This document shows, piece after piece, positions 2,972-62,490 of a stretch of 64,000 nt of DNA (positions are counted from its first letter, which is position 1; each line of letters starts with the position of its first letter). The notes under the pieces are model-generated. The model saw only the letters and a list, made by a program, of their open reading frames with translations. It was not told where the DNA came from and ran no database searches. The position numbers were made by a program, and so were the translations under genes. The stretch comes from a virus, in IMG/VR virus record IMGVR_UViG_3300045988_165521, one strand, 5' to 3'.

Positions 2972-3280
2972 CATTTTTGTTAGCTTATACTTTCGTATAA
3001 GATCAGACTATATCTTATATTAAATTACTATTACCATAATTTAATATCCTCTTATTTCCATAAAATAATGTACTCTACTTGTTTATTCCTAATAATATTT
3101 CTTTATTAGTATACTTTCGATAGTCGTTGAACCCTTCTTTTCAGAATCGGCTGCTGATTGTCCAATACTTATAATTTTTAAACATTCACACTTAAATCAT
3201 TTTTAGATTTTATGTTGTAGTTTATAAGTCTCTAAGGAGTTTCCAGCAATTAAAGAGGTTTTATTATGACACGTAACTCT
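2972..3280 (-). ncRNA. group I intron (309 nt, no ORF) inside the RNAP gene
   Basis: The minus strand carries the canonical core elements in 5'-3' order: P AATTGCTGGAAA (3240-3251), Q AATCAGCAGCC (3149-3159), R GTTCAACGACTA (3121-3132), S AAGATATAGTC (3006-3016). P/Q can pair as UGCUG/CAGCA and R/S as GACUA/UAGUC. The internal guide GTCATAA (3264-3270) pairs with the exon end TTATGAT, with U.G at the splice site. The terminal G is at 2972. Excision restores the reading frame. Confidence 0.85.
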
Positions 3281-6200
3281 ATCATAATCAGACCCTTGCA
3301 ACCATGTCTGATTGGTTGGTACGTAGACCTCGTTTATGTCACTATCAGTAAATAGAACTACTTCCATTGGCATGAATGACTGCATTGACTGACAAGGAAT
3401 ACGAGTACCTACAAATCTTAAACTTTGCTCAAACGCTTTATATTTTCTATCAGCGATTTTCATAATTCTATTACTAAATCTAATATTTTGATTATCACTT
3501 AACATTTGAATTAGCACTTGAGGATTTATAGATTTGTAATCTAAAATTTCTCTAGTTTTAATATCTCCAAAATCATCATAATATGATAAAGTAACATTAT
3601 CTGACGTAAATTGATTTGCAATTAAGTTTTTGTAATTAGATAATGTATAGTTATACTTATAGTTATTATAGATTCTAGAGTTATTAATTTCAGAAAATCT
3701 TTCAAAGTTATCTACAATTACTAGGTCATGTATATTTCCCGCAGTATCAGTATATTTATAAAACTTCTTACCTTCTGCAGATGCTATTTCTTTTCCATTG
3801 TAGTAAACAGAATTATCAACTATAGTAAAATCTCCATTTGGAGTTAAAGTATCCTTATATAAATTATTCAGATTTTGGTCTCCAATTTTTACATAAAGTT
3901 TTTTTCCAGTTCCATCAAATAATATTATATCATAAGATTCAGGATCAGGATTATCATTGTTATAATAACCTTGAATTCTCTCTTTAAAGAACTCAGCTCC
4001 TCTTTGCTTAATTTTAGCTATAGAATCTCCTGGCAATAGACCTAATTGTTTAGCATATAATTTACCCATAATAATCTGGGCAGGAATTACTTGTACAGAT
4101 TCAGGTTGTACATATATACCTTTTCATTGGATCATCTTACCATCAGCTAAATCATTTAATAATTTTTGCTGAGATTTATGTAACGAGTTTTCTATAAAGT
4201 CAATATCGATTTCTCCCGCACTAGGAATTAATGTTCCTGCTGCTCTACGAATTAGAGCTATTCTCTCTGTAGTAATAATATTAACTCATTCTAGTTGCTC
4301 AGGGGTTAAATCTTTTTCAGGTTTTCCTTTAAGCCCAAGTTCCTTTTTAATATTAGATCTTAATTCATCATATAGAGATTCTACAGTAGTACTAGAGGTT
4401 CCATTAAGATAATGTAATGCACGAGTTATATCTCCTTCAAAAATACTATGTTTTTCTCCCTCAATAATAAATATTGTATCAGAGCCTTTAAGATTTTTTG
4501 GACGTAAAGATAATCTTTGTGCATATCTCTTATCTAAGTTTTTATACCAATCGTATTTTGAATAATTATCAATTTTTACAATATCATACATATCAGTAGT
4601 AACCTTTCCCATATATCCTTGATATAGTCTCTGTCCTTCTTCGTTTAATAAAGGTTCTTCTCCATTAAACATCGGATCATTATAAACTACTAATGTATCT
4701 TCAAAATCGATAGGATTTTCAGCAGTAAGTTCTGTAACAAATGGGTTAATAAGATTTTCTCCATTACGAGTAACAAAAGGACCTTGCATTGCTTCATTAA
4801 TAGTTAAATCTGCAAGACGAGGATCTGTAGCTCTACCTACCTTTCTTACTAAATCTAAAAGTTCATCGTAGTTATAGTTATATCCTCCTCAGTTAAAATA
4901 CTGTTGTATTCCATATGATGGATTTAATACAGATGCAACACCATCATAATGACGTCTAATTGCATCTTTTACTAAAGAAGATGTAACTGTTGAGTTAAAG
5001 ATACCATTAATAGTACCTGCACTAAAAGGAATTTTATAATCGATTTTCTTTTCATTAAAACTTTGTTGAGCAAGTTTTATAAAAGATTGTGCAAGTCCTA
5101 AAGTATCTTTATTATTTGTTTGAAAAGCTTTAACTAAAGCTTTACCATAAATTTCATATAAGGCTTGTTGATCTCCTGTTTCAAGAACTTCATGAATTTC
5201 TGCAATAGCATCATGACATAATTTACCAATTTCTTGATATACTTTTGTTGCTAAATCGTGTGTAAATCCATTTTGTTCAAGAGCACTAATCATCTGAGTC
5301 ATTTCAGTAACTTCTGCTTCATCAAGTTCGTGATCTGCATTCATCTGAACTCCTCCAAACTTAGTTGACATTGTAGTAAACCATAAATCAGAATCATTAG
5401 TTCAAATATCATCACCATTAACATTAGAAGCTCCTACTTTGATAGCAGACTTATTTACAAGATACCCAATCATATAGTCTTTTAGATTATTATCATTAAT
5501 AATATCATTAACAACATCTAAATTATTTTCTGATCAATATAATTGTTTCATGGTATCATTGTATTCCATTGATCATGCTCCACCAAATATTTGATCTAAA
5601 TCATATATACTACTAATTTTAATATCTGTATCGAGTATACTATTTTCTCCAATTATATTACCAAATATATCGGTTTCAATACGTTCTACTTGAGCTACAT
5701 TATTATTAATAACTACATGATTTATTTTCCAATAAGTTTGGTTATCAGGTTCTCTATAGAAGAGATTATCAAATACTTTGTCATAAACGATTGTTACACT
5801 AGGATCAAATAGTAAATTATGCATTTTTCTAAACATATTTTCTAACTTGATATCTGATCCCCATGATGTACGCCTATTAGCATTTGTAATCTCATATTCT
5901 GCTCACTTTAATAATTTAGGTAAACCATATTCTCCATTCATATCTGCTAAAATAGTCTTTTTATTTCTACCTACTTTAGCATCAATTAGTGATACATTTT
6001 GTTGTCTAGAAAAATACGGACTTGTAAATCCAGATCCGTCCATAGAATCAACACTATCAGTCATACCAGAAATATTTTGTACAGCAGCTCCAATATCTCC
6101 AACTACAGCCATTTTAACTTTTGGAGCAACTCCATTTTTTAATCCTTGTGCAAAGGAATGATGAGTAGCTCCATAAATAACCATACGTTTTACCTGAGAA

Positions 6201-16877: not shown

Positions 16878-18773
16878 TTAAAAATTAGCTTTTATGCTTT
16901 GTTGTTGTTTTTTCAGATTTGCCTGATTATATATATCTCTATATTCACTAGCACTTCCAATTTCATGATTAGATGCAACAGTTGCAAGTTTAGAATCATG
17001 CATAGGCATAAATATCATTCCTTTATACATTGAATTTTTATTGCCATGAAATATTTTTCCAAAGAAGCCTGGCTTAAAGTTATCAACCTTTTTGTCTGAT
17101 TTCTTTACTACATCTCCTCCATAATTTACATAAGTTGAATAGATATCAAATATTCTATCTTTATCTGGTCCATCAACATGTCATAACCAAGGAGAATTAC
17201 TATCAAAGTCAATAGCTTTATCACTAGCATAACCTGATAATCCAAAAAATACCATCATATCTTCAGGTCTGAATTTTCATCTATTAGTTTCAGTATCAAA
17301 CTCTAAGTCTAGATCATATTCATGTAATTTTTCTATCATTCTTTGTCTAGATACATTAGGATTATCTTCAATTCATTCCTCAAATTTTGTATATCGATCA
17401 TATGCATCTAAGTCAGGCTTATAAACTCCCATTTGTTCTGCATCTCGATCTTTTGGAAGTCACATTCTACTAAGTGAACTAGAGCCATCTCACACAAGTC
17501 TATTTAAATCAATATCTGATATTCTTTGATCTCCAAAGAAAATAGAATTTTTATCAACAATATTACCTATTTCAGCCTTATCCAATACATTTTTTAATGT
17601 ATTTTGAGTTACTTGTGTGCCATTCTTATCTTGTAATGGATAATCCCTAGTTACAATTTCTAACCCTCCTTTGGCATCAGATGTTGATAAAACTGCAATT
17701 TTAGGATCTACAACTCTACCTGCAGCAATAGTTTCTAGAGAGCTTCTATTAACATCTTTATCAGTTCCTCCAGAACTTCCACTGCCTGCTTTAGATGCAG
17801 TTGAATCATAATCTAAAGCTTGTGTATTTTCTACACTATGATTTGTATGTTCAACTACAGCAATTTGTAGTAATCGTTTTACATCTTCAGGATTACTTGG
17901 ATTAAAACCTTCAGCAGCTGCTTGAGCTCTTAAAACGTTTTTCATATTTTGTGGAAGAGTCTTATATAAATAATTAACAGCTAAATCAAGACTTTCTTTA
18001 TCATGATATCCCTGATTAGATGTACTATTTGATTCTGTAACTTTATATATTCCATCTGGTCCATTAAATCCTAATAATTGTTCAAATCCTTTTTCAATTT
18101 TATTCTGATATTTAGAAGTATATCTATCAAACTGATTTGAGGATTTATTAGTTCCAAACGCTCCAATAGTAGCTTTTACATAATCTACTATAGATTTCAT
18201 TCCAACTGTATTAGATAAATCTGTAAGGATACTATTATTATATGCTAGTTCTGGACGTTCTTCTCGAAGATGAATTAATTGAGAATTAGTTAATGCTTGA
18301 TATTTTTGTGGATTTTTATAATAAGTATCTGCAGATATAGTCTTAATACTGCCGTCTTTATTATACACATATAAGCTACCTTCATTACTAATTGCAACTT
18401 CAGACCCAGATCCTTCTTTAATAATTTGTTCTGATGCAGTTTCATGTAATTCATTATTATGTTTAATTCTATTAGCTAAAGATTGTAATCTAATTAAATC
18501 AGACATATCATATTGATTACTCTGTCCAGATACAAATAATTCACCTAAGTTTTGAGATTTTCTTAAAAAACTATTAGCTCTATCTAAGAAGTAATCTACA
18601 TCATTAGGTAACCCATTCTCTTTAAGAACATTAATAATTTCTTTTTGAATAAGTTGTTCTTCTTTATTTTCACTTGTTTTAGAGGTCTGAGTAGCAACTT
18701 GTGTAGGCTCTGCAGCATCTCTAAAAAAGGGGGTATAACTAATACCCCCGTTTTGATATCTCTTTATCTTCAT
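16878..18773 (-). CDS. cargo/internal virion protein, 631 aa (function unassigned)
   Basis: ATG at 18771-18773 lies just after the upstream TAA (18776-18778); stop TAA at 16878-16880. Five in-frame TGA were translated through in 16881-17492. N-terminus is MKIKRYQNGG. Confidence 0.75.
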
Positions 18774-18775
18774 AT

Positions 18776-21700
18776 TTATGACATCATTTTTAGAAATAAC
18801 TTAATAATGTTATTATTTAGTTCTCCAACAGCCTTATTGATAGCTTTTTGCTGGTCTAGATATTGTTGCTCATCTGTTTTACGTAAATATCTACCGCCAG
18901 ATTTATAACTATAAGGTATAAATCTTTGAATAGGAATTTGCTCAGGATTAGTATAATTAATTAAATATGGTTTTGTATCTAATTTGTTTCCTCCAAGCCA
19001 AAATCTTCTTTGAGATTGCTGATAAGGATTAACTAAAGCCTCAATTCCATATTTACTTCTATTAGTAGCAATATCTCCAGAATATTTGTAATTTAAATAA
19101 TCATCGATTTTCCAACCACTATATTCTGGATTTTTACCCTCATTCTGTTGCCAATTATAGAACTCATTAATTTTACTATTTCTAAAATTAGTAAACCAAT
19201 TACTGAAATCTCCAGCAGCCTTTTGTTGTGCTAATTGAGCTTGTAAAGCTTGTTTTTCATTTAGATCCTTGGCATAGTCTCCTCTTAACTGATAAATAAG
19301 ATTCTTAACATTTTGAGTTTGTTGCGTAATCTTATTAGCATCAGCCATATCTAACTGAGCTAAACCTTGTGCTCAACGGTTTCTATTCTCATTAGTTATC
19401 TGAGTTCTAATATTAGCGTATTGTTGTTTTTGAGCAAGTAACTTATCATTATATTGATCTATCATTTGAGAAAATTTAGCATCTCTTTCTCCTTCTAATT
19501 GATCAACATTCATATCTCTCATAAGTCTTTCTGCTAATACTTTATTTGGATCACTAGTCGATGTCTTATATTGACGCATACTTTTAATGCGATCATTATA
19601 CATTCTATGCAACCCATTATCACTAAATCTAGAGTAAAACTCAGTAGGCATTTGTTGTTGAGAACCTATCATTCCTTTACGAATGGCATCTTTCATTTTT
19701 TGGGTAGTACGATTGATACCTATTGTAGAAGTAATAAAGTCTCCTATTCCCATTACCATATCAGGATTAATATTAAATCCTTTTCCTTTGCCATGTCCAA
19801 AAGCTGTATAATCAGAGTTATCTGTATTATATGAGGATCTGTTTAAATTAGACAAAGTTCTACTAGTAGAATCATTAAGTAATTCTTCTTTTGAATCTAA
19901 CCTTCCTTTAAACCCAAGATTATTATTAATTTGAGCCATTTTAGCATCATTTAAAATTGAATTATACTGATTCCTCACTACAGTATTTTGAGGTGATTGA
20001 ACAGCTTTATTTAAGCTTGTAGAAGCACGTTTAATAGGAGTTCCAACAACAGCAACTGGATCTACTTGTACATTAATCGGATTATTATTTTTATCTAGCA
20101 TATAATCAGCTACACTAGTTCAATTTTGATCTATTGGAGTACTAAATGTAGGATACTTAGTACCAGGTTGTGCTTTTATAATTTTACCGCCTTTTTTATA
20201 AAATACTGGATTATTCTCTGGTTTATAATACCAGAGATGTTGTGGTTGATTACTAAATATTCCTAAGTTAGGAGCTAAGTTAGAATAGATTGGCATTGTA
20301 ATAGGTCTCCGTTTTAGAGCTGTAACAGATGTAAACATTTCAGGTCCTCCGAAAAATCTTTGAACTTGAGAAGTTTGTTTATCTACATAGTTCTTAAAAT
20401 AAGGATTACTTCTATTAGTTTTTGCATCTCTAGTAGCAGCAGTCTTATTCCAATTTCACCAACCCATATCATCTGGATTTCTATAAGTACTAGGAAGTTC
20501 ATCATATTTAAATTGTCCTGTATTAAGTCCTTTACCTATTGAAGACTTCCAAGGTTTTCTCCAATTGAAATTTACATTAGAAGAACGTTTAATACCATAC
20601 TCAGAAAGTAAGTCAGTAACATTATCTGTTTTAGCTTTACCTAATTTTCCAATAATTATTTCCTCTAACTTTTCAGTTTTTTGATTTTTTGGAAGTGAAT
20701 TGACCGACTCAATCTCAGAACGACCTAATTTAATGGTAGGAAGATTTTTGTTATTAGTTGGTTTTAAAGTAACCATATCAGAGTTTCCTCCTTTTAATTT
20801 TGCACTTCCTGTGTTACGTTTTAAATTAGCAAAACCTCTAACTCCATTTAATACAGTACGAACATCTTTAATAGTTCATTTACCATCTTGAATATTTTCT
20901 CATGCAGTTGCTAATCCAGATGCAGCACTTCCAAAACTAACTCCTCTAGTTGCTCACTTAACAGCATTTGCGACAGCCTTAGATTTCTTTAAAGCTTTAG
21001 CTATTTTTGCTGCCTTAGCTCCTGAGCCAATCCCAGGAAGTAAAGTAGCTGCATCTAATCCTAGATTAAGTGCTAAATTACTAACATCGCCTCAATCTAA
21101 TCCATCTCTAGCAATATCTGCTCCAAAACCAGTTAATGAACCTACTGCACCAACTCCAGCTCCAGCAACATTGCCAAATCCTGGTACAAAAGTAGCACCT
21201 AAAGAAGCAGCATCTGCAACTAAAGCTGCAATTTCAGCTTTGTCAGCAGCAGTTAATTGTGTACCATCTCCAATAGTTTTTTCTTCTCCAGCAGCGCGAA
21301 GTTTTTTATCTGATTGTTGAATTGCTTGTTTACTAGCTTTTGCACTATTAACTCTATTTGCAGCAACTCCTCCAATTTGATATTTAATAACTCCTCCGTT
21401 TTTATTACTTGGAACTCTATAAGCTAAACCTAATTGTTCTAAGCCTTCAGGAGTAGTAATACTTCTTAGAGCAGAATTACCTCCTGTTCCTGAATATTGC
21501 TGTTGATACTTACCAAGCGTTTGAGTTTTAATTAAATCCTGAAATAATTGATATAAATCAGGATATTTTTGTCCAATAATTGGATTAAACTTAGCATGAC
21601 GAGTACTAATTGTAGCTATATATGGATTTCTAATAATATCACTAATATATCCCTTAACTTCTGGATCTCTTAAGATTTCAGGATGTTGCTCAATATATTG

Positions 21701-23386
21701 TCCTAAACGAGAATCAATATTCCAATAATAATTTCTCATACTATCTTCAGATCCAGGTAAACGACTATTTAATGTATAGTTATCATTTCCTGGGTTTTCG
21801 TCATGAAAATAGTATAATTGAGTTTGAGGATTATAATACAATGTAGCTCTTGTTTGAGGATTTGAAGCATCTCCAGTACTTGCTACTTCTTTATATCCTC
21901 CAGTATTTCCTATAGTATAGTAACTATTAAAAGCAGTTGTAGGATTATTTTCATAGTAAGAATTAACTATATTTGGATCTAATTGCTCTTGTAAAGTATT
22001 ATTATAATTAATTCTTTGTTTAGTTAAAGGATCAATATATACTCTTTCTGCTAAAGTTCTTAAAGGGTGTCCATAGGGATCAAACTGAGAAGAATCTTCA
22101 GGATTGTAATTAGGAAAATAATCATAAACTAAAGGATCACCTGCTTGTCTAACATAGTTACCAGTTAGATCTGCAGCATATCGATTTGGTTGAAAATACG
22201 GGGACCACATTGGATTACCTTCTGAATCAACAGAAGTACTAAACCATGGAGATCTAGAACGATTTTCATCCCAATATTGTTTAATAATTGAAGAATTACC
22301 AGCAGTTCTCTTATTATCTGCTACAAAATCTAAATACTTTTGAATTTTAGATAAACTATCTTGGTCATCACCCCTATATACTTTTCCATTAATAACAAAT
22401 AAACCAGAGTCATCTGGAATATAATCCGCATAACTTCCATATTTTCTTTTAAATTCATTATTAAGTCATGCATCTCCAGTTCCAATATATGATAATAATT
22501 CTGGATTATTTATAGTTACATTCCCATTTGAATCAACGTTAAATAGGTTATGGTACTTATCATAATCTCATCCTGCTTTACTTCAGTTTTCTTTTGTTTT
22601 CTTAAGTTCTTCTTGTGCAGGATCTACTTCTTTTTGAGCTTGAACAGGTTTACTTCCTCCTAAAAAGATACCAATATCATCTAATGCCATAGCATCTTCA
22701 TCCGTCCAATTTCCTTGTTCAAGCCTAGATATAATATCTTCTATGCCTTGCTCACCATATTTATTGTAAAAGTCTATATAAGCTTGCTTATCTAAATCAT
22801 TATAGCCTTTAAATTGATCATTATCCCCATAACCTGCAATATCTTTTAGACTACGAAGTCTTCTAGTTGCTTTTAGATTATTAGCTCCATTTATATAAAC
22901 TCTATTTCCATTTACTAATTCAAAATCTCCAGTATCTTTATTACGCTTATATTCCATAGTAATATCACTAGACCAATCTCTAATATTAATTGGATCTAAT
23001 GCTTCTACTGGCTTTTTATATTGAAAATCCTTTAAAGCATGAACTGCATTTCTTGCAGTATTTTCTTTTCCCCTTCATAGATTTCCAAAACTTCTGCCAA
23101 GTCTACTTCGACGTTTACCTAAACGTTCTGCTTGATTATTAGTAACATCAAACTGTACTCCTTCTAATCTATCGGCACTAGAATTATATGATAAATTAGC
23201 ACCTGATCTTAGAGCATCAGTTATTTTACTAAATTGATATGCAGTATCTTGATCTAATGTTTTTCCATAAGAAGACATCTGATTTAGAAAATCATCATCA
23301 ACCTGATATTGATTACCATCTATAGTAAAAGTGCCGTATTTTTGAGGAGTAGAACCACCTTGTTGATATTTAATTACTTGTGCCAT
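18776..23386 (-). CDS. giant cargo/ejection-type protein, 1536 aa
   Basis: ATG at 23384-23386; stop TAA at 18776-18778. Seven track fragments share one frame, and all gaps were translated and are broken only by TGA. N-terminus is MAQVIKYQQGG, with an internal VIKYQIGG at 21368-21391. A Gly/Ala-rich hydrophobic stretch (..LGATFVPGFGNVAGAGVGAVGSLTGFGADI..) is typical of ejection or tape-measure-like proteins. Confidence 0.75.
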
Positions 23387-23410
23387 TTTATCACACTTGC
23401 TTTATATATA

Positions 23411-23461: not shown

Positions 23462-23791
23462 TTACTTTTTAGCAAAGAATTTATTTTTCATTTCCCCGCC
23501 ATTTTCTTTCTTAGCACATTTCTTGCGGCCTACCATCTTTCCACCTTTCTTAAATACAGGTTCTCCTTCAGGAACTTGTCCAACAGGACCTTGTGGTCCT
23601 TCGCTCATAGCTTGTTGTAAAAGAGCTAAGAAACCTTCACAGACTTGAGCCATTGCTTGACAGTCTTGCGTCTGTAATGCTTGAGCTGCCATTTCTGCTA
23701 ACATTTGTAGTGGATCTTGTCCACCTTGTGGACCAGCAGGTGCCGCAGGAACAGGAGCGGACCCGCCTTCTTGATACTTTTTAACTTTCAT
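23462..23791 (-). CDS. small abundant-looking internal protein, 109 aa, basic C-terminal tail
   Basis: ATG to TAA ORF with no TGA, visibly GC-richer than its surroundings. It has its own promoter-like element upstream and a terminator downstream. N-terminus is MKVKKYQEGG; the C-terminus reads ..PVFKKGGKMVGRKKCAKKENGGEMKNKFFAKK. Confidence 0.75.
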   Translation of the reverse strand: MKVKKYQEGGSAPVPAAPAGPQGGQDPLQMLAEMAAQALQTQDCQAMAQVCEGFLALLQQAMSEGPQGPVGQVPEGEPVFKKGGKMVGRKKCAKKENGGEMKNKFFAKK

Positions 23792-23859
23792 AATTTAAAT
23801 TATTTTAATTTTTATAGATATCTCATAACTCTATGATTGTCATATATTCATTTAATGCC

Positions 23860-23891
23860 CAAAGATAACACTTTAGTTCTTAATATCCAAA
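23860..23891 (-). promoter_or_regulatory. Bacteroidota-type promoter (-33 TTTG / -7 TAnnTTTG)
   Basis: The minus strand reads TTTG (23888-23891), a 20-nt spacer, then TATCTTTG (23860-23867), about 70 nt upstream of the ATG at 23791. Confidence 0.6.
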
Positions 23892-24071
23892 TAAAATTAC
23901 TAAAATTTTCATTTACACTAAATTTTTATGAAAACACTTGCTACATTAGCAATATTATATTATCTTTGTTCCACAACCCAAGAGTATAAAATGAGTCTAT
24001 TTCATTCTCTTTGGAGATGCTAGATTAAACATGAGGCAATATAGGGTTATAAAAGATAGTTAGTATCTTTT

Positions 24072-24097
24072 AAGGAGAGTAAGAAATTACTCTCCTT
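24072..24097 (-). terminator. stem-loop immediately after the DUF192-like gene
   Basis: AAGGAGAGTA-AGAAAT-TACTCTCCTT, a perfect 10-bp stem starting 10 nt after the TAG stop at 24107-24109. There is no U-run on the minus-strand side, so its role as a terminator is uncertain. Confidence 0.45.
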
Positions 24098-24106
24098 TTT
24101 CTTTAT

Positions 24107-24709
24107 CTATTTAGGAGATTCGATAAACTCACTTGGACGATTATCCTGTTCATTTATATATTTAAAAATCTTTTTTCCAAGTTTAGCATAATCAGAATCA
24201 GCTTTACTTTTATTAGCTCTTTTTGCTAATTTTATTAAAGTTCTAGAATTTTTTCTTGAGAAAATACGTTCGCCACCAACTAAATCCATTTGAGGTTTTC
24301 CATCAGATCCAAGAATATACATTTTATCAATTTCTTTTTCATCTATATCCTCTTCAAAGTCTAATTCGTCTCCAATCTGAATTCCAGAATTAGCATTAAC
24401 TTCTAATACATATTTAGTTCTTCCTTCTTCATCTTCAGGAGTAGAAATAATTGGTTCAGAACTATGAGCTTTACCTAATACTACATTATAAACTTCATCA
24501 TCTTGATTTATAAATACTAAATCAATATCGAATTCCATTTCCTCTGTATTAAATACTACTTGACCTTGATCTTCAGGCATTATAAATAACATACCCTCGT
24601 CATCATCCATAGATTCTACATTACCTAAACCCTGAATTCTTTCTTCTTCCGTTTCTGCTATTAGAACTTTATATTCTTTATCTGCTATTTCTATTTTTAC
24701 CTCTTTCAT
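24107..24709 (-). CDS. DUF192-like protein, 200 aa
   Basis: The ORF ends in TAG followed by a hairpin. The N-terminal half (KVLIAETEEERIQGLGNVESMDDDEGMLFIMPEDQGQVVFNTEEMEFDIDLVFINQDDEVYNV) fits the DUF192/COG1430 pattern (A.t...r..GLm....l..d.GMlF.f...FwMkn...pLDiiFid). Confidence 0.6.
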   Translation of the reverse strand: MKEVKIEIADKEYKVLIAETEEERIQGLGNVESMDDDEGMLFIMPEDQGQVVFNTEEMEFDIDLVFINQDDEVYNVVLGKAHSSEPIISTPEDEEGRTKYVLEVNANSGIQIGDELDFEEDIDEKEIDKMYILGSDGKPQMDLVGGERIFSRKNSRTLIKLAKRANKSKADSDYAKLGKKIFKYINEQDNRPSEFIESPK

Positions 24710-26052
24710 TATTTCACACTTTTAATTAGTCCACTTCTATCATCTGTATTCTTTAATAGTTCATGACAAACTAATTTTCCAGCTTCAATTGCAATTTCGT
24801 TGGATGAATCTTCTTGATATGCTTTATATAAAGCCTCAAGTTTATCAGTAAATTCTTTTCTAAGTGTCCATTCTTCCTTTTCAATTTCTGCTGTCTGAAC
24901 AATTCCTCCTTCAGATTGTGCTACTACAGGAATTCCTTTTTTAGTAATTTGATCTTTTAATTCTGGATTTACATTTTCTAAATGATGTTTATGTGCATGT
25001 AAGTTTCCTTCAGGAATTAAATTCATCTTACCTCCGAGTTGGAATTTTTGTGTTTCTGTAGATTGTGTTGGTCGTTTCTGTAAGAATGCTCTAGCTTCAT
25101 CTAATTCAGGAAATTTCATTCCGTTTTTAGCCAAGGAATACATATTATCTAATCCATTATAAGTATTGAAGTTTTTACTAGCAAGAGACTGACCTATTTG
25201 ATTATTCAGTCGCTTTTTACCTGCATCTGTAATATCTAAAGTAGTATTTTGCATTCTTCTAGCTCTAGTTATAGCATTTTGGCCTTTTCGATGAAATCCA
25301 AAGTCAAATAATCCAGCTTTTTTATTACTATATTTATCAATACTATTACTGATAAATTTCTTTGAACCACTATATTCGTTACTAATATCAGATGTATTAT
25401 CTACTAATTTATTAATACGCTTTCCTCCAATACCATTAATTAAATTTAATGCAGCTCCAGCAGCCATTCCAATAGGGCCAAGCATACTTAGACCATCACT
25501 TACCATTCCTTGTATTTGAGAACCAGTACCTTCAACACGATCTTTAGTTCCTCCAATAAGATTTCCTATAGTTTTAGCTCCAGTATTAATCATTCCACCC
25601 ATAGGATTAAATTGACTTACTACATTGTGTCCTATGTCTTTAACTCCAGACATTACTTGAGCAGTAGATCCAGTTTTCTCATTTCCTACAAGGGCTGTGT
25701 TAAGATTTCCAATGAACTGGTCTCCCATTTGAAAAGCTCCTCCAAATTTGCCATTTAGCTTATTTACAGTTTCTGCTCCAGCAAATGTATCATTCTGTCA
25801 ATTTCTAACAGAATCTACAGTTTTTTGTGAAAACATACCTTTTGCGGTAGAGAAAGGATTCCTTTTATCTGCATCAGAATCAGATTTAGTATCTTTAAAA
25901 TTTCCAATATCTGATTTGATTTTATTCATAGAAGCACTAATGAAAGCATTATAGTTTCCTAAGTTAAGACCAAGCTGTTTTAACATATCTGGACTAATAA
26001 TATTCCCAGAACTAACTCCTCCTATTTCCATTTTTTTTATTCTTTTATGCAT
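24709..26052 (-). CDS. virion/cargo protein, 447 aa (function unassigned)
   Basis: Fragments 25798-26052 and 24709-25728 share one frame and are joined through a single TGA (25798); the gap was translated and is open. N-terminus is MHKRIKKMEIGG, with an internal KFQLGG at 25030-25047. A Gly-rich central region is present. Confidence 0.75.
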
Positions 26053-29000
26053 AACTTTGAGTCATTAATGTTTGTAATGCAGTAATAATAACAAGTTTAT
26101 CACCTTTATATTTAACTCTAATTCTTGCATATTTATCTCGAACTTTAGTTGCCTTTAATGGAGATTCAAAATCATTAGAGCTTGTTTGTTCATAATATAT
26201 TGGTTGTACTTGGAAATACCAAGAATCTTCACTATAGTATATATTACCTAATCGTCTTCCATATTCTTTTATATTTAAACAATCTGCATGTACATTTAAG
26301 TAATATTCATTTCGAATTGGATCTCATGTAACTTCTGTTTTATATCCTTTAGATTCTTTATCTAAATAGATTTCTGGGAAATTAGCGTTTGTAGATTCAT
26401 TTTTATTAAAAGTTTTATTTCTATAAATAGCTCTTTTACTAAATTCATATACATCTCCAGTAATTTCTATTTCAATAGAATTTGGTTCAACATTATTAGA
26501 TATTATTACTAAATTGTCAAATATTTTATGAATTCCTTTTGGTTCATTAACTATAAATTCAAACTCAAAAGGTTCCTGTTTATTATATCATTTAGTAGGT
26601 AATATTTGATTTGTTTCATCACTATCAAAATAATTTATCTCATCAATAATGTTACTTCTACCATGTACGAAAATATTATATAATAGTGCCTTATTTCAAT
26701 CATCTTGATATTTCAACATGTCGAATTCTTTTAGCACCTCATAAGGAATAATAGCTCCAGCTGTATATGATCGTTCAATTCCAAAAACAATACAATTACT
26801 CATAAGATTTCCACTCTCATCTTCAGAAGGATTATCTTCTGATGAAGTTACAACATATGGAGTATATTTTACTTCAATAGTATAATATAAATAGCCTCTA
26901 TCCTCTTTTCTGTATAGATCTTTAAATTCTATTGAAAATGGAGCCGCATCCTTCTGTTCAAGATAATTAGCATAGATTATTTTCTGACGGTCCTCTTCTG
27001 ATTCAGCATCTATAGCATTTCCAACATTTTTATTTTTAATTTCAACCCAATTCTCACTTACTTCATCCATAAGCCAGGTTTCTTCATTTGCTTTGCATTC
27101 AATAAGTGAATCAGTTTTTATTTCATCTTCGTCTCAGTAATATCCTTTTATAACGACACTATTAACATTATATCCATCATATCCATCAACTGTGAAAGTA
27201 AACTTTGAGTATTCTCTATCAGAAGTAACATATTTTCCAGTTCATTCTTCTCCTACCTTTACAAGATCATCAGTTTTCCGAAGATTATTACTTATTATAC
27301 TAAATATTTTACTCTTAAGCAAATCAAAACTAAAATATGTATTATTTATATTTTCTGATAATAAAGGAACTCACGAATATCTAGTAACTCACATGCTACG
27401 TACTTCATTATAACATATATTCCAAATTTTATCATTATTATAAAAAGTGAACATAACATCATTTTTATAAGCATTAAAGTGAGTTTTAACATTTCTCGTT
27501 CCTAATGCTACTGTTTTTTCAAGTTCCTTAAGATTTATTTCATCATTAAGGAATCTTTGAATTGTAAAATCAGATATAAGTTCAAGACCTCTATCAGAAA
27601 ATCTCCAAATTTTCTTAGTATATGTATCAACACCATATACTGCCCTAGGAGTTCTTATAATAGAGTCTTTTCATATAGAACCATACATATCAGATATAAT
27701 TGTCATTTGCTTTTGTAATACTCCAGATCCATACATATGAATATTTTGCCCAGTAATAGTTTGAATAAGAGCTTTTTCATTTATTGGAACAATAGCTATA
27801 GCATGTTCAAATACAGTTAATAGATTTCCTCCTCAAGGAAGAATTTTTACTATACCTCCATATTGTCTATCTAAATCTTCATATGATAATCCTTGGAATA
27901 CCTTATATGAGTTCTTAAAGTTTCCATCTACCTGAATATCACTAAACATTATACGAGTATCAAACTCGTCAACCTCATAAGGTACATCTATGTGCTTATA
28001 ATTTCTTTTAAATCCTAGAGTAGTACTATATCCTCTATTATATAAGTTACTTTCTGGAATTTTAGCAGAAGATTTAGTAGACATACCTTGTATAGGATAA
28101 AATCCTCTTGGATTTCCCATTAATGCAATTTCTTCTGTATTAAACTCATCAATACTTCTAAGAGAAATATTATTATTAGATAATCCTTTAAATGTTACTC
28201 AACTTCCAATAGCTACTGCATTAATATCTCCAATATTTATATCATCCCAGTTTTCAGTATTTCTAATACCTTTAAAATTATCTTTTCAAGTATTAAAATC
28301 TACTATTGTATCATTTGTAGGAACTGTTTGAGAAGTGAAGTTTCTATGTAACCTAATGGTAGTTGTATAAGTAAAGCAATCACCACGATATAATATTGGA
28401 ATCATACTCCAATTAAATTCTATAGAATTACCTTCCACGTCTTTATAATCAGTAGTACAATCTGTAATATCTTTGTCTTTTATTACACTAGTATCTGTAG
28501 CATATCTATCAGATACTGCAAAGTAAGGAGAATTATCATCGATTCTTATTTGAAAATATTCCTTATTAAATGTTTCGGAGTAATTTTTTATATAAACATT
28601 ATATAATGATGATTTACCAAGTAAAGTGTTACATCCTACAAAATCAGTAAATACTCCTCTAACTAATTGAGCATCGCTTGATTCTATATCCTCTTTTCCA
28701 AAACAGGTTTGTTGTTTAATTTCTTCTTGCATTCCTGCTCTAGTACAAAAGATATTATCATTAATAATTTTCTGAGGAATATCCGAGTCTATATATAAAA
28801 GTTCGCTTGTTGTTTCTGCATTTGTACTTTCAACATTTGTTAAATCTAAGGTATAACTTCTTCCTGATGCGTTATATTGATTAAACTTGTATGCTTCTAC
28901 TAATTTATATCTATCTGAGTTAAGTAGAGATTGCATTTGCTTATCACACTTAACATCTGCTGATAATAATCCTGAATAGCTACAATTGTTACTATATATA

Positions 29001-30565
29001 AGTTTTGAATCATAATCGTTAATCAATACCTTATTTTTATTTACAAAAGATTCTGTTACAAGCTTTGGATTTTGGCCTCCTTCAGAAAGATCAAGACAAG
29101 GAACTCCACTTACAGTGTCAACTCCTATAGATAACCCAGAGAATAAAAATGTTGGAATACGCTGTTGCCTAACAAAGTAGTATCCCTTAATATTCAGTTC
29201 TTTAAGTTTATTAATTACAAATTCAGGGATTCTAATTTTTAATCCCAATGGCTTCACAGATTTTCCGTCATGATCAATAATAGTCTTATCTTTAGTAAAT
29301 CTAAATACTCCTCTTGTATTTTCTAAAGTTTCTAAAGATATAAAATCTTTATTTTCTATAGTTTCAGGATCTCTTAAGTCTATATTATAATCATAATTAC
29401 ATTTATTACTTGATATTATCTCTCCATTATCCCCTTTTTCTTTAAAATGATAAGTTGAAAGATTAAAATCAATACCTCTAAGATTATATACAGGAGATAA
29501 ATGCTCATCATTATATATAAATACTACTCCTAGTCTATAAATTTCTCCAGGGAAATATCCAAGTCTATAATATATATTATATGGAGAATAGTATTCTGCA
29601 GCAGTAATATCCCCTTTATAAATTCCATATTTATCTGTAATATATCCTATATCATGTTCTTGACATTCTTCTACATTAATATATAACGCAAGATTACTTA
29701 AAGTGGCAGAGTCTTCTTTAAGTTTTGAAACATTTGCAAAGAATAATCTATTTTGAACTTGTGCCTGGCTTTTTACAGACTCTACATAGTTATATTGTAT
29801 ATTTAAATCTTCTGCAGTTATGTCTTCAAGTTCTTCAAATCCATTAATGGTTATTGTTTGATTGACATCAGTTATTTCATAAGTCTTTTTTATTTTATGA
29901 AAATCTGTTTTAGAAATACCATTTACATCACAACTTGTTCTACTATAATATATATTTATATAACTAAAAGACGTATCTATATTCTTAAGATAAAGTATTA
30001 TAGATTTATCAGTACGTTCATCCATATAAGCTCCAACACAAGTCTTAGGATTTGATAAATCTCCTTTAAATACAGACACTATTCCTGATTCAGCAACAAT
30101 ATCAGTTTCATTATAGTCACTATCAGAATATTTTATATAAAATATATAATTCCCTCCTTTGAGAGTTCCAAAGTAATCTACATTTTTAAATTGAATCTTT
30201 GGAATTCTAGTAACGTTTCTAAATAACCTAGTTTGTTGATCTAATTCATTTTCTGTATATAAATTAGATTGTTTAATTTGGTTTCGATTTATAATTTTAT
30301 ATCTATTATTTTCTAATAACGCTACTCTAGTATTTATTATTCTAGGAGGATTTTTATCATCGTTGAATATTAAATTTGTACTTCCATCATAAGAACTTTG
30401 ACATTCTATGTCTATAGGATTTTCTAGATCTAATTTTAATTGAGAATTACTTACTGTAAAATCATCAATCTGATCATCAGATTTTTTTAAATTACGTAAA
30501 GGATTATACTCTCAAGCAATATCTCCAGTATCCTTGTACTTTTTTACTTTCAGTTTTATATCCAT
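26045..30565 (-). CDS. very large tail/virion protein, 1506 aa (function unassigned)
   Basis: ATG at 30563-30565 overlaps the upstream TAA (TAATG). Fragments 28286-30079, 27833-28120 and 26696-27070 share one frame. Gaps 30079-30565, 28120-28286, 27070-27833 and 26045-26696 were all translated and are broken only by TGA. Stop TAA at 26045-26047. Confidence 0.8.
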
Positions 30566-33500
30566 TATTGCCCGTCATCATATATATTAGAAATAAACTC
30601 TCTTGCTACAGAACGCGTATTATTATCTGTCTCTCTCATAAACAATTCTAAAGTAGCATCCATATTAGATCTTACTTGATCTGTAAACACCATACTTTTT
30701 ATAGCATTAGTTAATTTCACTTTATTTGCATTCTCATTATACTCATGAATAAGATACAGGTCTCCACTTTTTATATTCGGCTGTCTTTCTAATTCATCTA
30801 CTTTAATTCTTACATCACTATTCTTATTATCTATTAACCTTTGGAGTTCATATTTAAAAGATTCATCAGGAGTAACTATACAATTAAAATTGACATTTGT
30901 ATTTGTAGATATCACATTATTGTCTGCAAAAGATACTCCATTAAATATTGAATCTATTTCATCTGGAATGTCAACTCCCTCATCCATGAAATATTTTCAA
31001 TTATATGTTCCAGAAAGATTAATAGTTTTTATATATACTGGATTTATAAGAGATTCTCTATAGTTATATAAAGAATAATAAATTATATTATTTTTAGAAG
31101 ACATACAATATCTTAAACAGTATATCATCATAAGATAGGAATATATACAAGTTTTAGAAATATAAGAAGCATCTTTCTCTGAAGGCGCCTTATTAGCACA
31201 GTAATATATACAAGGTCATGAATTTTTTGTTTCATATGACATTGCAAGACAGAAATTATTTGCAGATCCGTATCTGCTAAAGAAACCAGAATCTCCAGAA
31301 TGGCTACTATCATTACCATATTTTGCATTATAGAAATTATATATATTAAATCCATAATCATCTGCATAACTTTTTGTACTAGTTGCAGAATGGCCATTTG
31401 GTTTTCAATCTGTTCTATGCCAATTAGTTCCACTTGAAATATTTAAATCTCCAAGAACACTAGGTCAGTTCTTTTCTGGAGTGAATGCTTCTGTATTCTC
31501 ACCATAATACAACTTATTGTTTTCAAACCTAATAGTAAAAGGACCTACCTCTTTCCACCAGAAACACATTGATCATTTATCTCTTCCAGAACCGTCTTTT
31601 CTAAATTCTACATATTCAGGTCTATATTCTATTGTATGAGTATCGTCTTTATCTGTAACTTTAGTTTTAGTTTTTCCAATAGGATGATATTCATATAAAT
31701 ATTTATCACTACTACTGATTTCTTTTACAATATTATATTCAGTATTTGTAACTGTAAAAGTATTAAACAAATCAAATGAAAAAGATCCATCTATTTTATT
31801 AAAGAGTAGTGTATAAGTATTGCCTTTAGAATCTATAGCCTTGCCATTGTTAACAGTAACGCCTTTAGAAGTGATTCATCTTCATAATCTACCGTCATCT
31901 CCATTTTGGTCTTTTGGAACAGATATAGTATATACTTCAGAGTTTCCTACCTTTTTAATAGAATATGTATTGCCTTGTTTAAATATAGTCTTAATTCCAA
32001 TCTTAGAAGTATCATACGTTTCTCCAGGAGGTTCTGGATATACTAATTTAATTTCACTAAAATAGTCACTAGAATCAAATGAATAATTATTTATTTTTTC
32101 ATCTTTTGAATCTTCATTACCTCTTCGTTTTAGAAAAGCAGTTTCTGTAAACGCATAATTACCTGAATTAAGTTCGAGTTTTATATAATCAGCAAAGTAA
32201 TTTACAAGGTCTTGTCCTGTAATATCCTTAAAGTTATCTTTAACATAATATCACCTATTTACAAGTTCTGTGGCATAAATTCTATTTTCGGCAGGTTCTA
32301 TATCTCCTCTAATAGGATTTCCAGATTCAATATTAATAACATAACGAAGACTTAGAAAGTATATATCCTCTTTATTAAAATTAACTTTTTTTATCTTAGG
32401 TTCTCCAGTTTGAGTAGTATCATACTCTGCTATGTCTTCATTATTTTCAGAAAAGGGTATATCTATAATAATAGTTCCATTACTTATTATATCAGAAACC
32501 GAAGTCCAATCAATAGCAGTATAGGGGTTGTCTGAATCTGAAGTAGAATATCTTTCTAACTTATATTCAAGGCTAACTCCAGGAAAACTTTCTCAAGAAG
32601 TAAGCATTGTTAGAGAATTATCTCCTACAAAATATTTAAAATAATTTCTTCCAAAGTGTATTTCATTAGGATCTATTGTTATAGGATCTCTAGAAATTGT
32701 TTGTGTAAATTGACTATATATTATATAATTTTTCTTACCTTCATTTTCAACTAATAATGCGGGAGTAATATATTTGTAGTTTCCAAGCGTTTTTGCCTCA
32801 ATAGTATTAAATATTATAGACTGGAAATTATTATAAGATATTAATTGATTAGGCTCTAGACTTATTGGAGATAATTTACTTATATTTTTTTCATCTAAAG
32901 TATCATAATCATGTAAAAAATATACTAAATTATTTTGAATCTTATCTAAATCTCCATCAGCATAATTTACAAGATTCCAATAAGTTTGTACTCTAAGATC
33001 TCCGCCTGGATAAACTTTTATAGCATTTGAATCACTATTATCTACATATATCTTACTTTTATCAAAATATATATTAAATTGTTCTGGAACCGTAATACTA
33101 AACTTTACAGCAAGCCAACCAGGAATATCCCAAGATACAGGAATCCAATCACTTCTATTAGTTGTGGATTTATCGACTTGTAATTCAAGAAGCCCATCTA
33201 TATTATACAATTTATTTTCATCTGTAAGAATATAAGGAACTAAGTGTCTATAGTATTTATTGTTTAACTGTTCAAGTGCTTCCTTAAAGGAATATTCATC
33301 TAAATTTTCATATATAAGAAGATACTTATCTCCTGGATTTAAATAAAAATTAGGATCTTTACTAAGAAGTATGATTTTAGTTTCACCTTCTAAATCTTTA
33401 TATAAAGATGTTTTATCAATAATAATATCCTCAATTGTAGCATCCTTATTATCTACAATTGGGGTAAAGATTGTTTGTTGTGATGGAAAACTTCCAATTT

Positions 33501-47148: not shown

Positions 47149-47204
47149 ATTAAAAAATACTTAAATTGTTAAACATTTTGTTTTTGTTTTGTTGATCAAC
47201 AGTA

Positions 47205-47212
47205 CAAATTTA
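47205..47212 (-). promoter_or_regulatory. possible -7 promoter box (TAAATTTG) without an exact -33 partner
   Basis: The minus strand reads TAAATTTG, 57 nt upstream of the ATG at 47148. There is no TTTG at the 19-21 nt spacing. Confidence 0.3.
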
Positions 47213-47246
47213 CAATAGCAAAAGACTAAAACATAACGTTACTATT

Positions 47247-47285
47247 AAAATAAAAAATCCCCTTAAGTTTCTCAACTTAAGGGGA
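47247..47285 (-). terminator. strong rho-independent terminator
   Basis: The minus-strand RNA reads CCCCUUAAGUU-GAGA-AACUUAAGGGG (11-bp stem, 47258-47285), followed by AUUUUUUAUUUU. Confidence 0.85.
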
Positions 47286-47300
47286 TTACAAAGATCCATA

Positions 47301-47320
47301 ATTAGTAACTTGTTACTAAT
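47301..47320. promoter_or_regulatory. perfect palindrome ATTAGTAAC-TT-GTTACTAAT (candidate operator)
   Basis: 9-bp inverted arms with a 2-nt spacer. It overlaps the TAG stop of the HTH ORF and lies upstream of the terminator and the next operon. Confidence 0.35.
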
Positions 47321-59945: not shown

Positions 59946-60986
59946 TTATACAACTTGTTTTATTTTATCATTATAAGGATTAGTATCAACTGTTTCTGCA
60001 GCTTGAATTTGAACTTGTTGCTGTTTTGTTTCAATAAGTTTATCGTTATAATCCTTATCGTTTTTAACTTTTTCTCTTTCAATAGCTACTTTTTCAGCTT
60101 CAAGTTGTAGTCTAGCTTGACTATTTTGTTTAAGTTGATTTTGTGATTGACCTAATTCCCTTTGTAATTGTTCATTTTGTTTCTGTAACTGTTGCAGATT
60201 TTGTTCATATTGCTGAAGTTGTTGCTGCAACTGAGAAACACTATTATTTTCTTCCTTCTTAACAGCAGTAGCTTTAGCTACATAACGTTTAAGTTCGGAC
60301 ATACTATTGGCAGTTGCAATACTTACTGCCATATCGGGATCTGACATTCCAGCTTTAATTAATTCAATATTAAGAGCCTTTACAGTTTCCATATCTTTAA
60401 AAGACTTAGAACTATCCTCAATATGTAAATCAAAATCTGTAAGTGTATAATGTTCAGGAAGTGCAGTAAATATTCTTGAATATTTATTACCTAACACAAT
60501 AGTACCAGTAATACCATTTGGATATACTAATTTAGCTAAATTAAGCATATCATAATTAGCTTCTTTATAAATTATATCCATGGTTTCAAAATATTGTTTA
60601 GTTAATAAACCTGACATTTTAACTCCAAGTTGAACATTAGATACAGCATCTCTCTGTTCATATTGAGCTAACCTCTCAGGTAACACTCCTGTAATTGAAG
60701 AAGCTTGTTGTTCTACAGCTTGAATAGCTAATTGAATACCTTGAATAGCTTGAGCTTTAACTGTATCATCAAATCCATTAAAAATAGTATTAGGCATACC
60801 TTCATTACCTTCCTCCTTACTATTTATTAATGCTAAGCCATTCTTTTTATATGCTTGTCAAGCTTTAACTCGATCTGTTAATTTTTCACCTAAAAACGAA
60901 GGAATAAAAGAAACATCCATCCAATCTCCAACTCCTCCTGAAGAAGCAATAAGATTATCTCTAAAATATATAAGTAAATCATATTT
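59946..60986 (-). CDS. portal protein, exon 2
   Basis: Starts AAA TAT GAT (KYDLLIYFRDNLIASSGGVGDWMDV..) in frame with track ORF 59946-60797 through one TGA. The C-terminus is Q-rich coiled coil. Stop TAA at 59946-59948. Confidence 0.75.
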
Positions 60987-61314
60987 CATTGTTTATTCGA
61001 TATAGGTCGTTAATCTATATCCGTCTTTTTGACTGCTGCATGTCACCATGCAGATTAGACTATATCATACAAATTTGATTTAAAATTAATTCAAATAAAT
61101 TCTGTTTCATTATATTTCATAACTACTTATAATTAATTTTAAATTAAACTTGTCCCCGCACTTCCACTTACTTAAGTGTACTCCTTTCGGATAGTCGTTG
61201 AACTTTCAAAGATATTTCTATCTAAGCTTAGCTGCTGATTGTCTTAAATTTACTATTATTCAATTTAAGGTTTTCCAGCAATTCACGGGGTTTATACAGG
61301 ACTCATATAATTTA
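60987..61314 (-). ncRNA. group I intron (328 nt, no ORF) inside the portal gene
   Basis: Minus-strand P AATTGCTGGAAA (61272-61283), Q AATCAGCAGC (61231-61240), R GTTCAACGACTA (61191-61202), S GATATAGTC (61058-61066). The guide GTCCTGTA (61295-61302) pairs with the exon end TACAGGAT over 8 bp, with U.G at the splice site. The terminal G is at 60987. Excision is in frame. Confidence 0.85.
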
Positions 61315-62490
61315 ATCCTGTAGGTCCATAGTATGTGCTATTAATGAATATGGATCTCCATTTTTATCTAAGAAAAACATTCCATTAACAGATAATCTGC
61401 ATCTACTAGGACAATCTGCACTTCTTACAATATACTTTGATTCTCCACGAGTAATGTATACTTCTGAACCAATTTTTACTCCTTCATGTCTTGTTAATTC
61501 TCCAGTTTTATAATCTGCTTCAATTCATTCAACTTCATATACAGGAATAAGATGATTTTTTATAGGTTCTATTGAATCATAATCTCCAGGTCATCCTGGA
61601 TGTGCTTCAAGTCCTGCAAGAATACCTGTATGTAAATTATCCGCTCGTAAATTAGGTTCAGCAGGTTTACCAACATATCTAACCAAATAAGTAGGAGATG
61701 TTGAATCAGCAGTTTGTTGCATATCTCTAATTTTCTTAGCTGCTTCTGTAGTTAATTCTGATCTGAATGTATTTAAGATATCCTCTCTTGACATTCATTT
61801 TCTAATAACAACTCTCTTAGAATCTGCAAGATAAGGAGAATTTGGATTACGTTCTATAAATGTATTAACGGGATTTAAAATTTCAATATTGACATTTGAA
61901 TTACTTTCTGTAGGTTTTACTCTATAGTAACAAGTACCTGTAACAAGTAAATCTGTAAGTAATTCTGCCATTTTACGTTTTAAATCGATGTTTCTTGATT
62001 GTCTTAAATAATCAAGAATATTTTGTGCAGCAATTTCATATTCCGAAACAAAAGATTGATCAATATCTTGTTGAATTGAGTTGATTTCTTTTTCAATAAA
62101 AGGATCATTTACAATTTCTTTATTTTCAATAATAGCTGCAATAATGTTATTCTTTAAATACTGTTGCAAATAATTAAATACTTCTGCACTAATTTTAAGT
62201 TGCTTTTCTCTCATTATATTTGAAACAGTCTTTTCATCTTTGCAAGATACTTTTAAATCTTGATTTAAACCTAGATATTCTCCAACTAATACATCAATAT
62301 GTTTCTTAATTAATGGTGTAAAACTAACTGATGTAGGAGTCCCAATTCCGTAATTTTCTTCTAGGTGTTTGAATTGATCTGCATCTCTACGACAATGATA
62401 ATATCCATAAGCTTTTCTTATAGCAACTTTATCATATACAAGATTACCTATCGCATCATTAATCTTCTTTACTTCATTCTCTATCACCAT
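61315..62490 (-). CDS. portal protein, exon 1
   Basis: ATG at 62488-62490. Fragments 61795-62490 and 61591-61794 plus 61315-61591 were translated as one frame broken only by TGA. 392 codons, ending ..SLIAHTMDLQD. It sits immediately downstream of TerL. The spliced product is 738 aa. Confidence 0.75.

Follow-up and report, generated by a model that had tools for sequence, protein, structure and literature searches.

Portal gene and insert

The window analysed here is the whole 64,000-nt (64-kb) stretch from IMG/VR virus record IMGVR_UViG_3300045988_165521. Read under code 4, it consists of tightly packed long ORFs that all lie on the minus strand. Across the window TGA encodes an amino acid (Trp), with about 20 or more in-frame TGA codons in each giant ORF, and no tRNA gene, hence no suppressor tRNA, was found within the 64 kb. 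The genes for TerL (phrog_6681) and the portal protein come first in the gene order, followed by an MCP candidate (phrog_11589) and, at the end, by several proteins of 1000–2600 aa. The only named homologs of the portal protein are those of Crassvirales, at 21–28 % identity, and the longest of the related contigs has 177,852 bp. The intron described below resides in what appears to be a crAss-like phage with TGA=Trp and a large genome of about 170 kb.

The two largest coding gaps in the code-4 gene map are two introns, one in the portal gene and one in an RNAP-like gene. The next-largest gaps lacking a long minus-strand ORF are at 23795–24106 (312 nt) and 47161–47315 (155 nt). Elsewhere in the map, the large consecutive minus-strand ORFs at 16878–18800, 18776–23401 and 23462–23794 have in common an N-terminal K(K/R)YQxGG motif (examples are MKIKRYQNGG, MAQVIKYQQGG and MKVKKYQEGG), which is also present in a weaker form in those at 24709–26064 and 26045–30586. 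Virion cargo proteins might use it as a shared signal for targeting or processing.

The portal gene is arranged as follows.

62490 to 59946, minus strand: portal gene, two exons around a 328-nt insert
61315..62490, minus strand: exon 1, 392 codons, translated under code 4, ending ..ATG GAC CTA CAG GAT
60987..61314, minus strand: insert, 328 nt, 5' end UAAAUU (with an in-frame UAA), 3' end ..ACAAUG
59946..60986, minus strand: exon 2, 346 codons and a stop, starting AAA TAT GAT TTA
Predicted ligation junction: GGACCTACAGGAT joined to AAATATGATTTAC

When the insert is removed, ..MDLQD is joined in frame to KYDLL.. and a portal protein of 738 aa results. The initial annotation had proposed a 328-nt group I intron at 60987–61314 whose excision joins the two halves of the gene in frame, and both the block, with these exact boundaries on the minus strand, and the joining are confirmed. 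The 738-aa product that it gave is also obtained after excision, but the portal gene contains four in-frame TGA codons and the ORF has this length only when they are read as Trp, which had not been mentioned. The spliced protein has one Pfam match, to P22_portal, which covers residues 156–679 and so spans the join at residue 392/393, and it also matches the PHROG portal families phrog_6547 and phrog_156. Stop codons are found throughout all three frames of the insert, and an intein or other coding insertion was rejected for this reason. A group II intron was rejected because the insert fits the group I model, and translational bypassing because 328 nt is too long.

In order to compare the join with uninterrupted genes, IMG/VR was searched with the spliced portal and the 74 loci retrieved were examined by tblastn under code 4. 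More than 50 of the portals, ranging from 97 % down to 51 % identity, are encoded by single uninterrupted genes, as are the portals of two GenBank faecal phage contigs that share 43–47 % identity with that of the window. All of the 23 representative portals that were aligned read LQD(K/R)YDLL across the join with no indel, and the flanking residues are near-invariant. The join is colinear, with no gap, with over 50 intron-less homologs of 43–97 % identity, and portal homologs that are naturally split into two genes at this position, which the initial annotation had set against an intron, were not seen among them. One intron-less portal gene (GenBank accession number MT835539.1, 33165–37793; 43 % identity) includes several in-frame stops even under code 4, which suggests that the phage concerned has a different stop-codon reassignment, probably of TAG.

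Group I core of the insert

An Rfam scan of positions 60000–62300 returned a match to RF00028 at 61324..61036 on the minus strand, which covers the full model (1–253) and scores 56.9 bits (E-value 3e-13) where the gathering score is 50. The same models detected both introns of the window only when such sub-window (2.3-kb) slices were scanned, and scans of the whole 64-kb window at the gathering threshold and at E ≤0.01 returned neither. Presumably, these A+U-rich introns were lost to the speed filters, and the miss is a caution for routine annotation rather than counter-evidence. The elements of the intron are listed in 5' to 3' order.

61315..61322, minus strand: P1 5' strand, exon sequence UACAGGAU, with the 5' splice-site U at 61315
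Intron nt 2–10: P10 candidate, AAAUUAUAU, can pair with exon 2 nt +3 to +11
61295..61302, minus strand: P1 3' strand and internal guide, GUCCUGUA, intron nt 13–20
61284..61290, minus strand: P3 5' strand, CCCCGUG; P3 has 2 compensatory pairs
61233..61280, minus strand: P4–P5 domain, P4 UGCUGG/UCAGCA (the classical P and Q elements) around the P5 hairpin
61192..61203, minus strand: R element, GUUCAACGACUA, containing the P7 5' strand GACUA (61196..61192)
61165..61191, minus strand: P7.1 (UCC-GAAA-GGA) and P7.2 (CACUU-AAGU-AAGUG), between P7 and the P3 3' strand
61154..61160, minus strand: P3 3' strand, UGCGGGG
61069..61153, minus strand: P8, long and A+U-rich, intron nt 162–192 paired with 217–246
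61058..61066, minus strand: S element, GAUAUAGUC, containing the P7 3' strand UAGUC
61036..61053, minus strand: P9 hairpin, CUGCAUG-GUGA-CAUGCAG; 5 compensatory pairs
60999..61021, minus strand: P9.2 hairpin, GAUAUAG/CUAUAUC, loop AUUAACGAC; 7 compensatory pairs

P1 is formed by UACAGGAU and GUCCUGUA, and reading of the sequence bears out the 8-bp helix with U.G at the 5' splice site that had been claimed for it. Two further introns, diverged in sequence, interrupt portal genes at the same codon boundary. One is a 360-nt intron at positions 4186–4545 of contig L076, whose portal is 53 % identical to that of the window, and the other is a 1131-nt intron at positions 2829–3959 of contig L074, whose portal is 64 % identical. 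All three introns retain the U.G pair. The P10 candidate, also read from the sequence, lies two bases off the splice site, and where L076 has G instead of A at exon position +3, the guide of its intron has C instead of U. The P/Q/R/S core was claimed to be common to the portal and RNAP introns and this is also correct; the P element (AATTGCTGGAAA, AAUUGCUGGAAA) and the Q element (CAATCAGCAGC, CAAUCAGCAGC) are identical in the two, and R GTTCAACGACTA and S GATATAGTC are common to the portal intron and the second intron near 3000–3300. The last nucleotide is indeed G (omega-G, position 60987), as it is in the L076, L074 and RNAP introns. P7.1 and P7.2 are extra hairpins typical of subgroup IA; P7.1 is missing from the L076 and L074 introns. 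A P2 helix is absent, with just 4 nt (UAAA) lying between P1 and P3, and the Rfam alignment deletes P2, an omission that is atypical among td-like introns. The minimum free energy fold recovers P1, P3, P4, P5, P6a, P7.1, P7.2, the long P8, P9 and P9.1 unaided, with a z-score of −5.4, and none of 100 shuffled sequences folded as well.

Covariation was counted in an alignment of the window, L076 and L074 introns for P1, P3, P4, P7 (as a pseudoknot), P7.2, P9 and P9.2. Paired cells make up 98.5 % of the total and 17 pairs are changed on both sides, a level reached in none of 500 shuffles, while controls in which the 3' partner was slid gave 0–5 two-sided changes. P4 and P7 are invariant across the three introns and so provide no covariation information, and P7.2 contributes three compensatory pairs. 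The clearest case is P9.2, in which every pair of the stem has changed while the window and L076 share an identical loop, AUUAACGAC. Taken together, the RF00028 score above threshold, the 17 compensatory pairs and the colinearity of the predicted junction with over 50 homologs that have no intron support the view of the initial annotation that this is a true group I intron with precisely these ends. By its sequence elements it appears to be an IA-type, td-like intron, not formally assigned to IA2 because P2 is absent.

That the portal is instead made as two polypeptides, a 392-aa N-terminal piece ending at the UAA and a C-terminal piece starting from the ATG at 60989–60987, with the insert as a spacer or dead intron between them, is very improbable. 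The last three bases of the insert do form an in-frame ATG, ORF calling with table 11 gives MKYDLL.. as an ORF start, and the L076 and RNAP introns also end in AUG. However, the diverged L074 intron ends ..AAACG and has no AUG. Moreover, all of the more than 50 homologs examined are single genes, the break would fall inside a near-invariant motif, and the supposed spacer holds a complete ribozyme core kept by covariation.

Alleles with and without the intron

The closest portal clade (at least 97 % identity) includes 21 independent metagenome contigs with the intron and six relatives, with portals 97 % identical, without it. The ORF-less intron seen in the window is present in 20 contigs, between residues 392 and 393, and is 328 nt long except in L061, where it is 327 nt. 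These 20 copies differ only by four substitutions, each of which is in a loop or swaps one standard pair for another, and by the deletion of one base in the unpaired 3' tail of the L061 copy. The portal exons of the contigs that carry the ORF-less form are intact and at least 99 % identical, and the insert was found in contigs from many different samples.

The 21st contig, L031, carries the window intron plus 806 nt, making an intron of 1134 nt (4177–5310) that includes an ORF of 288 aa. This ORF starts in apical P8, crosses the P8 3' strand and ends at a TAG in the S element, and the L074 intron contains a homologous ORF of 287 aa in the same place. The 288-aa product matches phrog_681, labelled 'endonuclease', with an E-value of 3e-17 and has a weaker match to an HNH-endonuclease PHROG; NCBIfam and PDB searches found no match and Pfam returned just a sub-threshold match to DUF723. 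Both ORFs encode a CxxH..CxxC pair and a C-terminal block of the YKIGIS type, and the matches of both are confined to PHROG 'endonuclease' families, with none in NCBIfam or PDB or above the Pfam cut-off. They may represent an uncharacterised homing-endonuclease family. The window intron has stops in all frames and no homing endonuclease ORF, but comparison with the 1134-nt intron of L031 allowed the two ends of one to be recognised.

61060..61120, minus strand: endonuclease ORF remnant; the start and 8 codons (MKYNETEF) lie out of frame with the last approximately 13 codons, and the original TAG stop is inside the S element

As homologous ORFs are present in diverged introns and both ends of the ORF survive in the window copy, the window form would have arisen by deletion of the ORF more parsimoniously than the longer form by insertion.

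The 806-nt deletion might be thought to have damaged the intron, leaving it real but splicing-dead in genomes that are defective or rely on a helper. Though the deletion did take most of the ORF in the P8 loop and altered apical P8, it spared the P8 stem, J8/7 and P7, and the deleted form recurs in 20 independent assemblies with just the four structure-compatible substitutions and the single-base deletion in L061. The portal exons that flank it are also intact and at least 99 % identical, and we consider a dead intron highly unlikely. That the block is an artefact of assembly or resembles a group I intron by chance, for which the empty whole-window Rfam scans could be cited, is refuted by the RF00028 match in the targeted scan (E-value 3e-13) and by the identical insert in contigs from many samples.

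An insertion site without the intron, of the type found in L003, reads as follows.

L003-type intron-less site: CTACAAGAT followed directly by AAGCTAGATCTC

When the window portal gene was compared with the six intron-less alleles of the closest clade, 13, 18 and 14–15 differences per 100 nt were counted in three bins around the insertion site, and 0–8 elsewhere. One contig, L043, has an intron-containing gene whose informative sites are nearly all of the L003 type, apart from a window-type block from −240 to +182 (about 420 bp). This mosaic is the product expected of exon co-conversion during homing and, as read from the alleles, is a signature of homing. In the portal clades at 65 % and 51–56 % identity, the intron is found in single members only, and its sporadic presence points to lateral spread.

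The best explanation, to which we would assign a probability of about 0.93, is that the portal gene of a large TGA=Trp crAss-like phage is interrupted by a phage IA-type group I intron, which arrived by homing and later lost its endonuclease gene. Comparison with relatives supports an origin in which homing driven by the endonuclease placed the intron in the near-invariant LQD/KYDLL site and carried a few hundred bases of donor exon along with it. In the lineage of the window, 806 nt of the endonuclease gene were later lost from the P8 loop, so that this copy can no longer promote its own spread, but it would still have to splice for the phage to be viable.

Self-splicing, the order in which it proceeds and what the in-frame stop does are inferred. 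The portal gene would be transcribed as one pre-mRNA, and a ribosome reaching an unspliced junction would halt at the UAA that forms the first three bases of the intron. The RNA would fold into the P3–P9 core, after which exogenous guanosine would attack following the U of the P1 U.G pair (61315), and the freed exon 1 would in turn attack following the terminal G (60987), joining GAU to AAA and giving the 738-aa portal. The viral and metagenome contig collections do not contain a 26-mer spanning the ligated junction, a result that speaks neither for nor against splicing.

It is conceivable, but rather doubtful, that the ORF-less form is kept frequent (20 of 27 near-identical portal alleles) by a benefit to the phage and is not merely a decaying selfish element. 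The intron might block the endonuclease target during co-infection, or it might gate late-gene expression together with the TGA recoding. If the former were true, loss of the target site would shield the portal gene from relatives that bear the endonuclease.

Companion intron and known phage introns

The initial annotation had also placed an intron in an RNAP gene of the same window, and this claim holds, its boundaries being fixed at 3280..2972 by alleles with and without the intron.

2972..3280, minus strand: intron in the giant RNAP-like gene, 309 nt; P1 AUUAUGAU/GUCAUAAU, perfect, with U.G at the splice site; interrupts ..LQGSDYD/IDKVY..
Predicted RNAP junction: ..TCTGATTATGAT joined to ATCGATAAAGTT..

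In the sub-window scan, RF00028 matched this intron at 3336..2984 with 34.9 bits, which is below the gathering score of 50. The P1 that Rfam implied (3336..) was rejected, as the AUUAUGAU/GUCAUAAU pairing was found and the intron-less alleles agree with it. A second IMG/VR search recovered 11 loci of 97–99 % identity and others of 53–64 % that read GSDYDIDK uninterrupted. Five loci have exactly 309 extra bases at the insertion point, and L105, L106 and L116 (and probably L110–L115) have much longer inserts there, of about 935 nt or more. The portal and RNAP introns assort independently, with several contigs carrying the portal intron but not the RNAP intron. The portal intron of L076 has the same P9 (CUUAUAC-GAAA-GUAUAAG) as the RNAP intron in the window (2972–3280), and hence introns of the two genes may exchange segments or have a recent common ancestor.

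Joining of the RNAP exons recreates DYDID, and the intron splits a catalytic-type motif (D[FY]DxD) as DYD/ID. A DFDxD catalytic motif, which DYDID fits, is reported for the large RNA polymerase that crAss-like phages package in their virions (bioRxiv 10.1101/2020.03.07.982082). PHROG and PDB searches with the RNAP-like segment found no match, and its probable identity is based on the DYDID motif, the size and position of the gene, and the literature.

The core of the portal intron matched 665 phage records in a blastn search. The best matches were to Intron_gpI features annotated in a Twort-like Staphylococcus phage (Silviavirus), with 78 % identity across half of the intron, and to the T-even td intron, which in phage LZ2 shares 81 % identity with the 3' part (J8/7-P7-P9-P9.2); overall, the DNA is similar to that of td, Twort-like and phiKZ-like phage introns. 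The portal intron shares core sequence elements and P7.1/P7.2 with the T4 td and Twort-like introns (IA2) but differs from them in having no P2, in the unclassified family of the endonuclease ORF in its P8 loop, and in its host, which is a virion gene and not a nucleotide-metabolism gene. In 2000, Foley et al. reportedly described an intron in the lysin gene, a late gene, of Streptococcus thermophilus phages, for which an ORF-containing form and ORF-deleted derivatives occur in one population at the same site (cited in PMC8541194). The portal intron likewise has ORF-bearing and ORF-deleted forms, but in a different host gene and a different phage group.

Among the crAss-like phages, the Zeta group is described by Yutin et al. 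2021 (PMC7886860) as having genomes of 145–192 kb, TGA=Trp, an interrupted RNAP and as many as 14 introns in one genome. Like the phage of the window, whose introns are predicted to be self-splicing, members of the group are gut phages that use TGA=Trp and have many self-splicing introns in core genes that include RNAP. With related contigs of up to 178 kb, TGA=Trp and an intron in the RNAP-like gene, the phage described here would fit this group. According to the accessible part of that paper, the introns were found via endonuclease domains and the named hosts were MCP, PolB, primase, ATP_43b and RNAP, with portal not among them (PMC7886860); an approach of this kind, as described there, would miss an ORF-less copy such as that in the window. 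The Jug jumbo gut phages also have essential genes split by many group I introns (terL, nrdD), with the portal fragmented and/or divergent, and metatranscriptome reads confirmed splicing for about half of the introns (PMC12880540). They are likewise gut phages of Bacteroidota type, but have genomes of 360–402 kb and introns averaging ~206 nt, and are unrelated to crAss-like phages (PMC12880540). As intron-rich crAss-like phages (PMC7886860) and other intron-rich gut phages (PMC12880540) are already published, the portal intron is an ordinary, though unusually well-illustrated, case of a known class.

For annotation, the consequence is that in this lineage of abundant gut phages the portal gene and the RNAP gene will each come out as broken fragments whenever TGA=Trp or ORF-less introns are left out of account, and that too few ORF-less group I introns will be called when A+T-rich phage genomes like this one are annotated routinely. 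The portal site presents four stages of the homing cycle in public metagenomes, namely the intron with its endonuclease, the intron with the endonuclease deleted, the empty site and the co-conversion mosaic. It is a useful natural system that leaves what is known of group I introns and of crAss-like phages unchanged.
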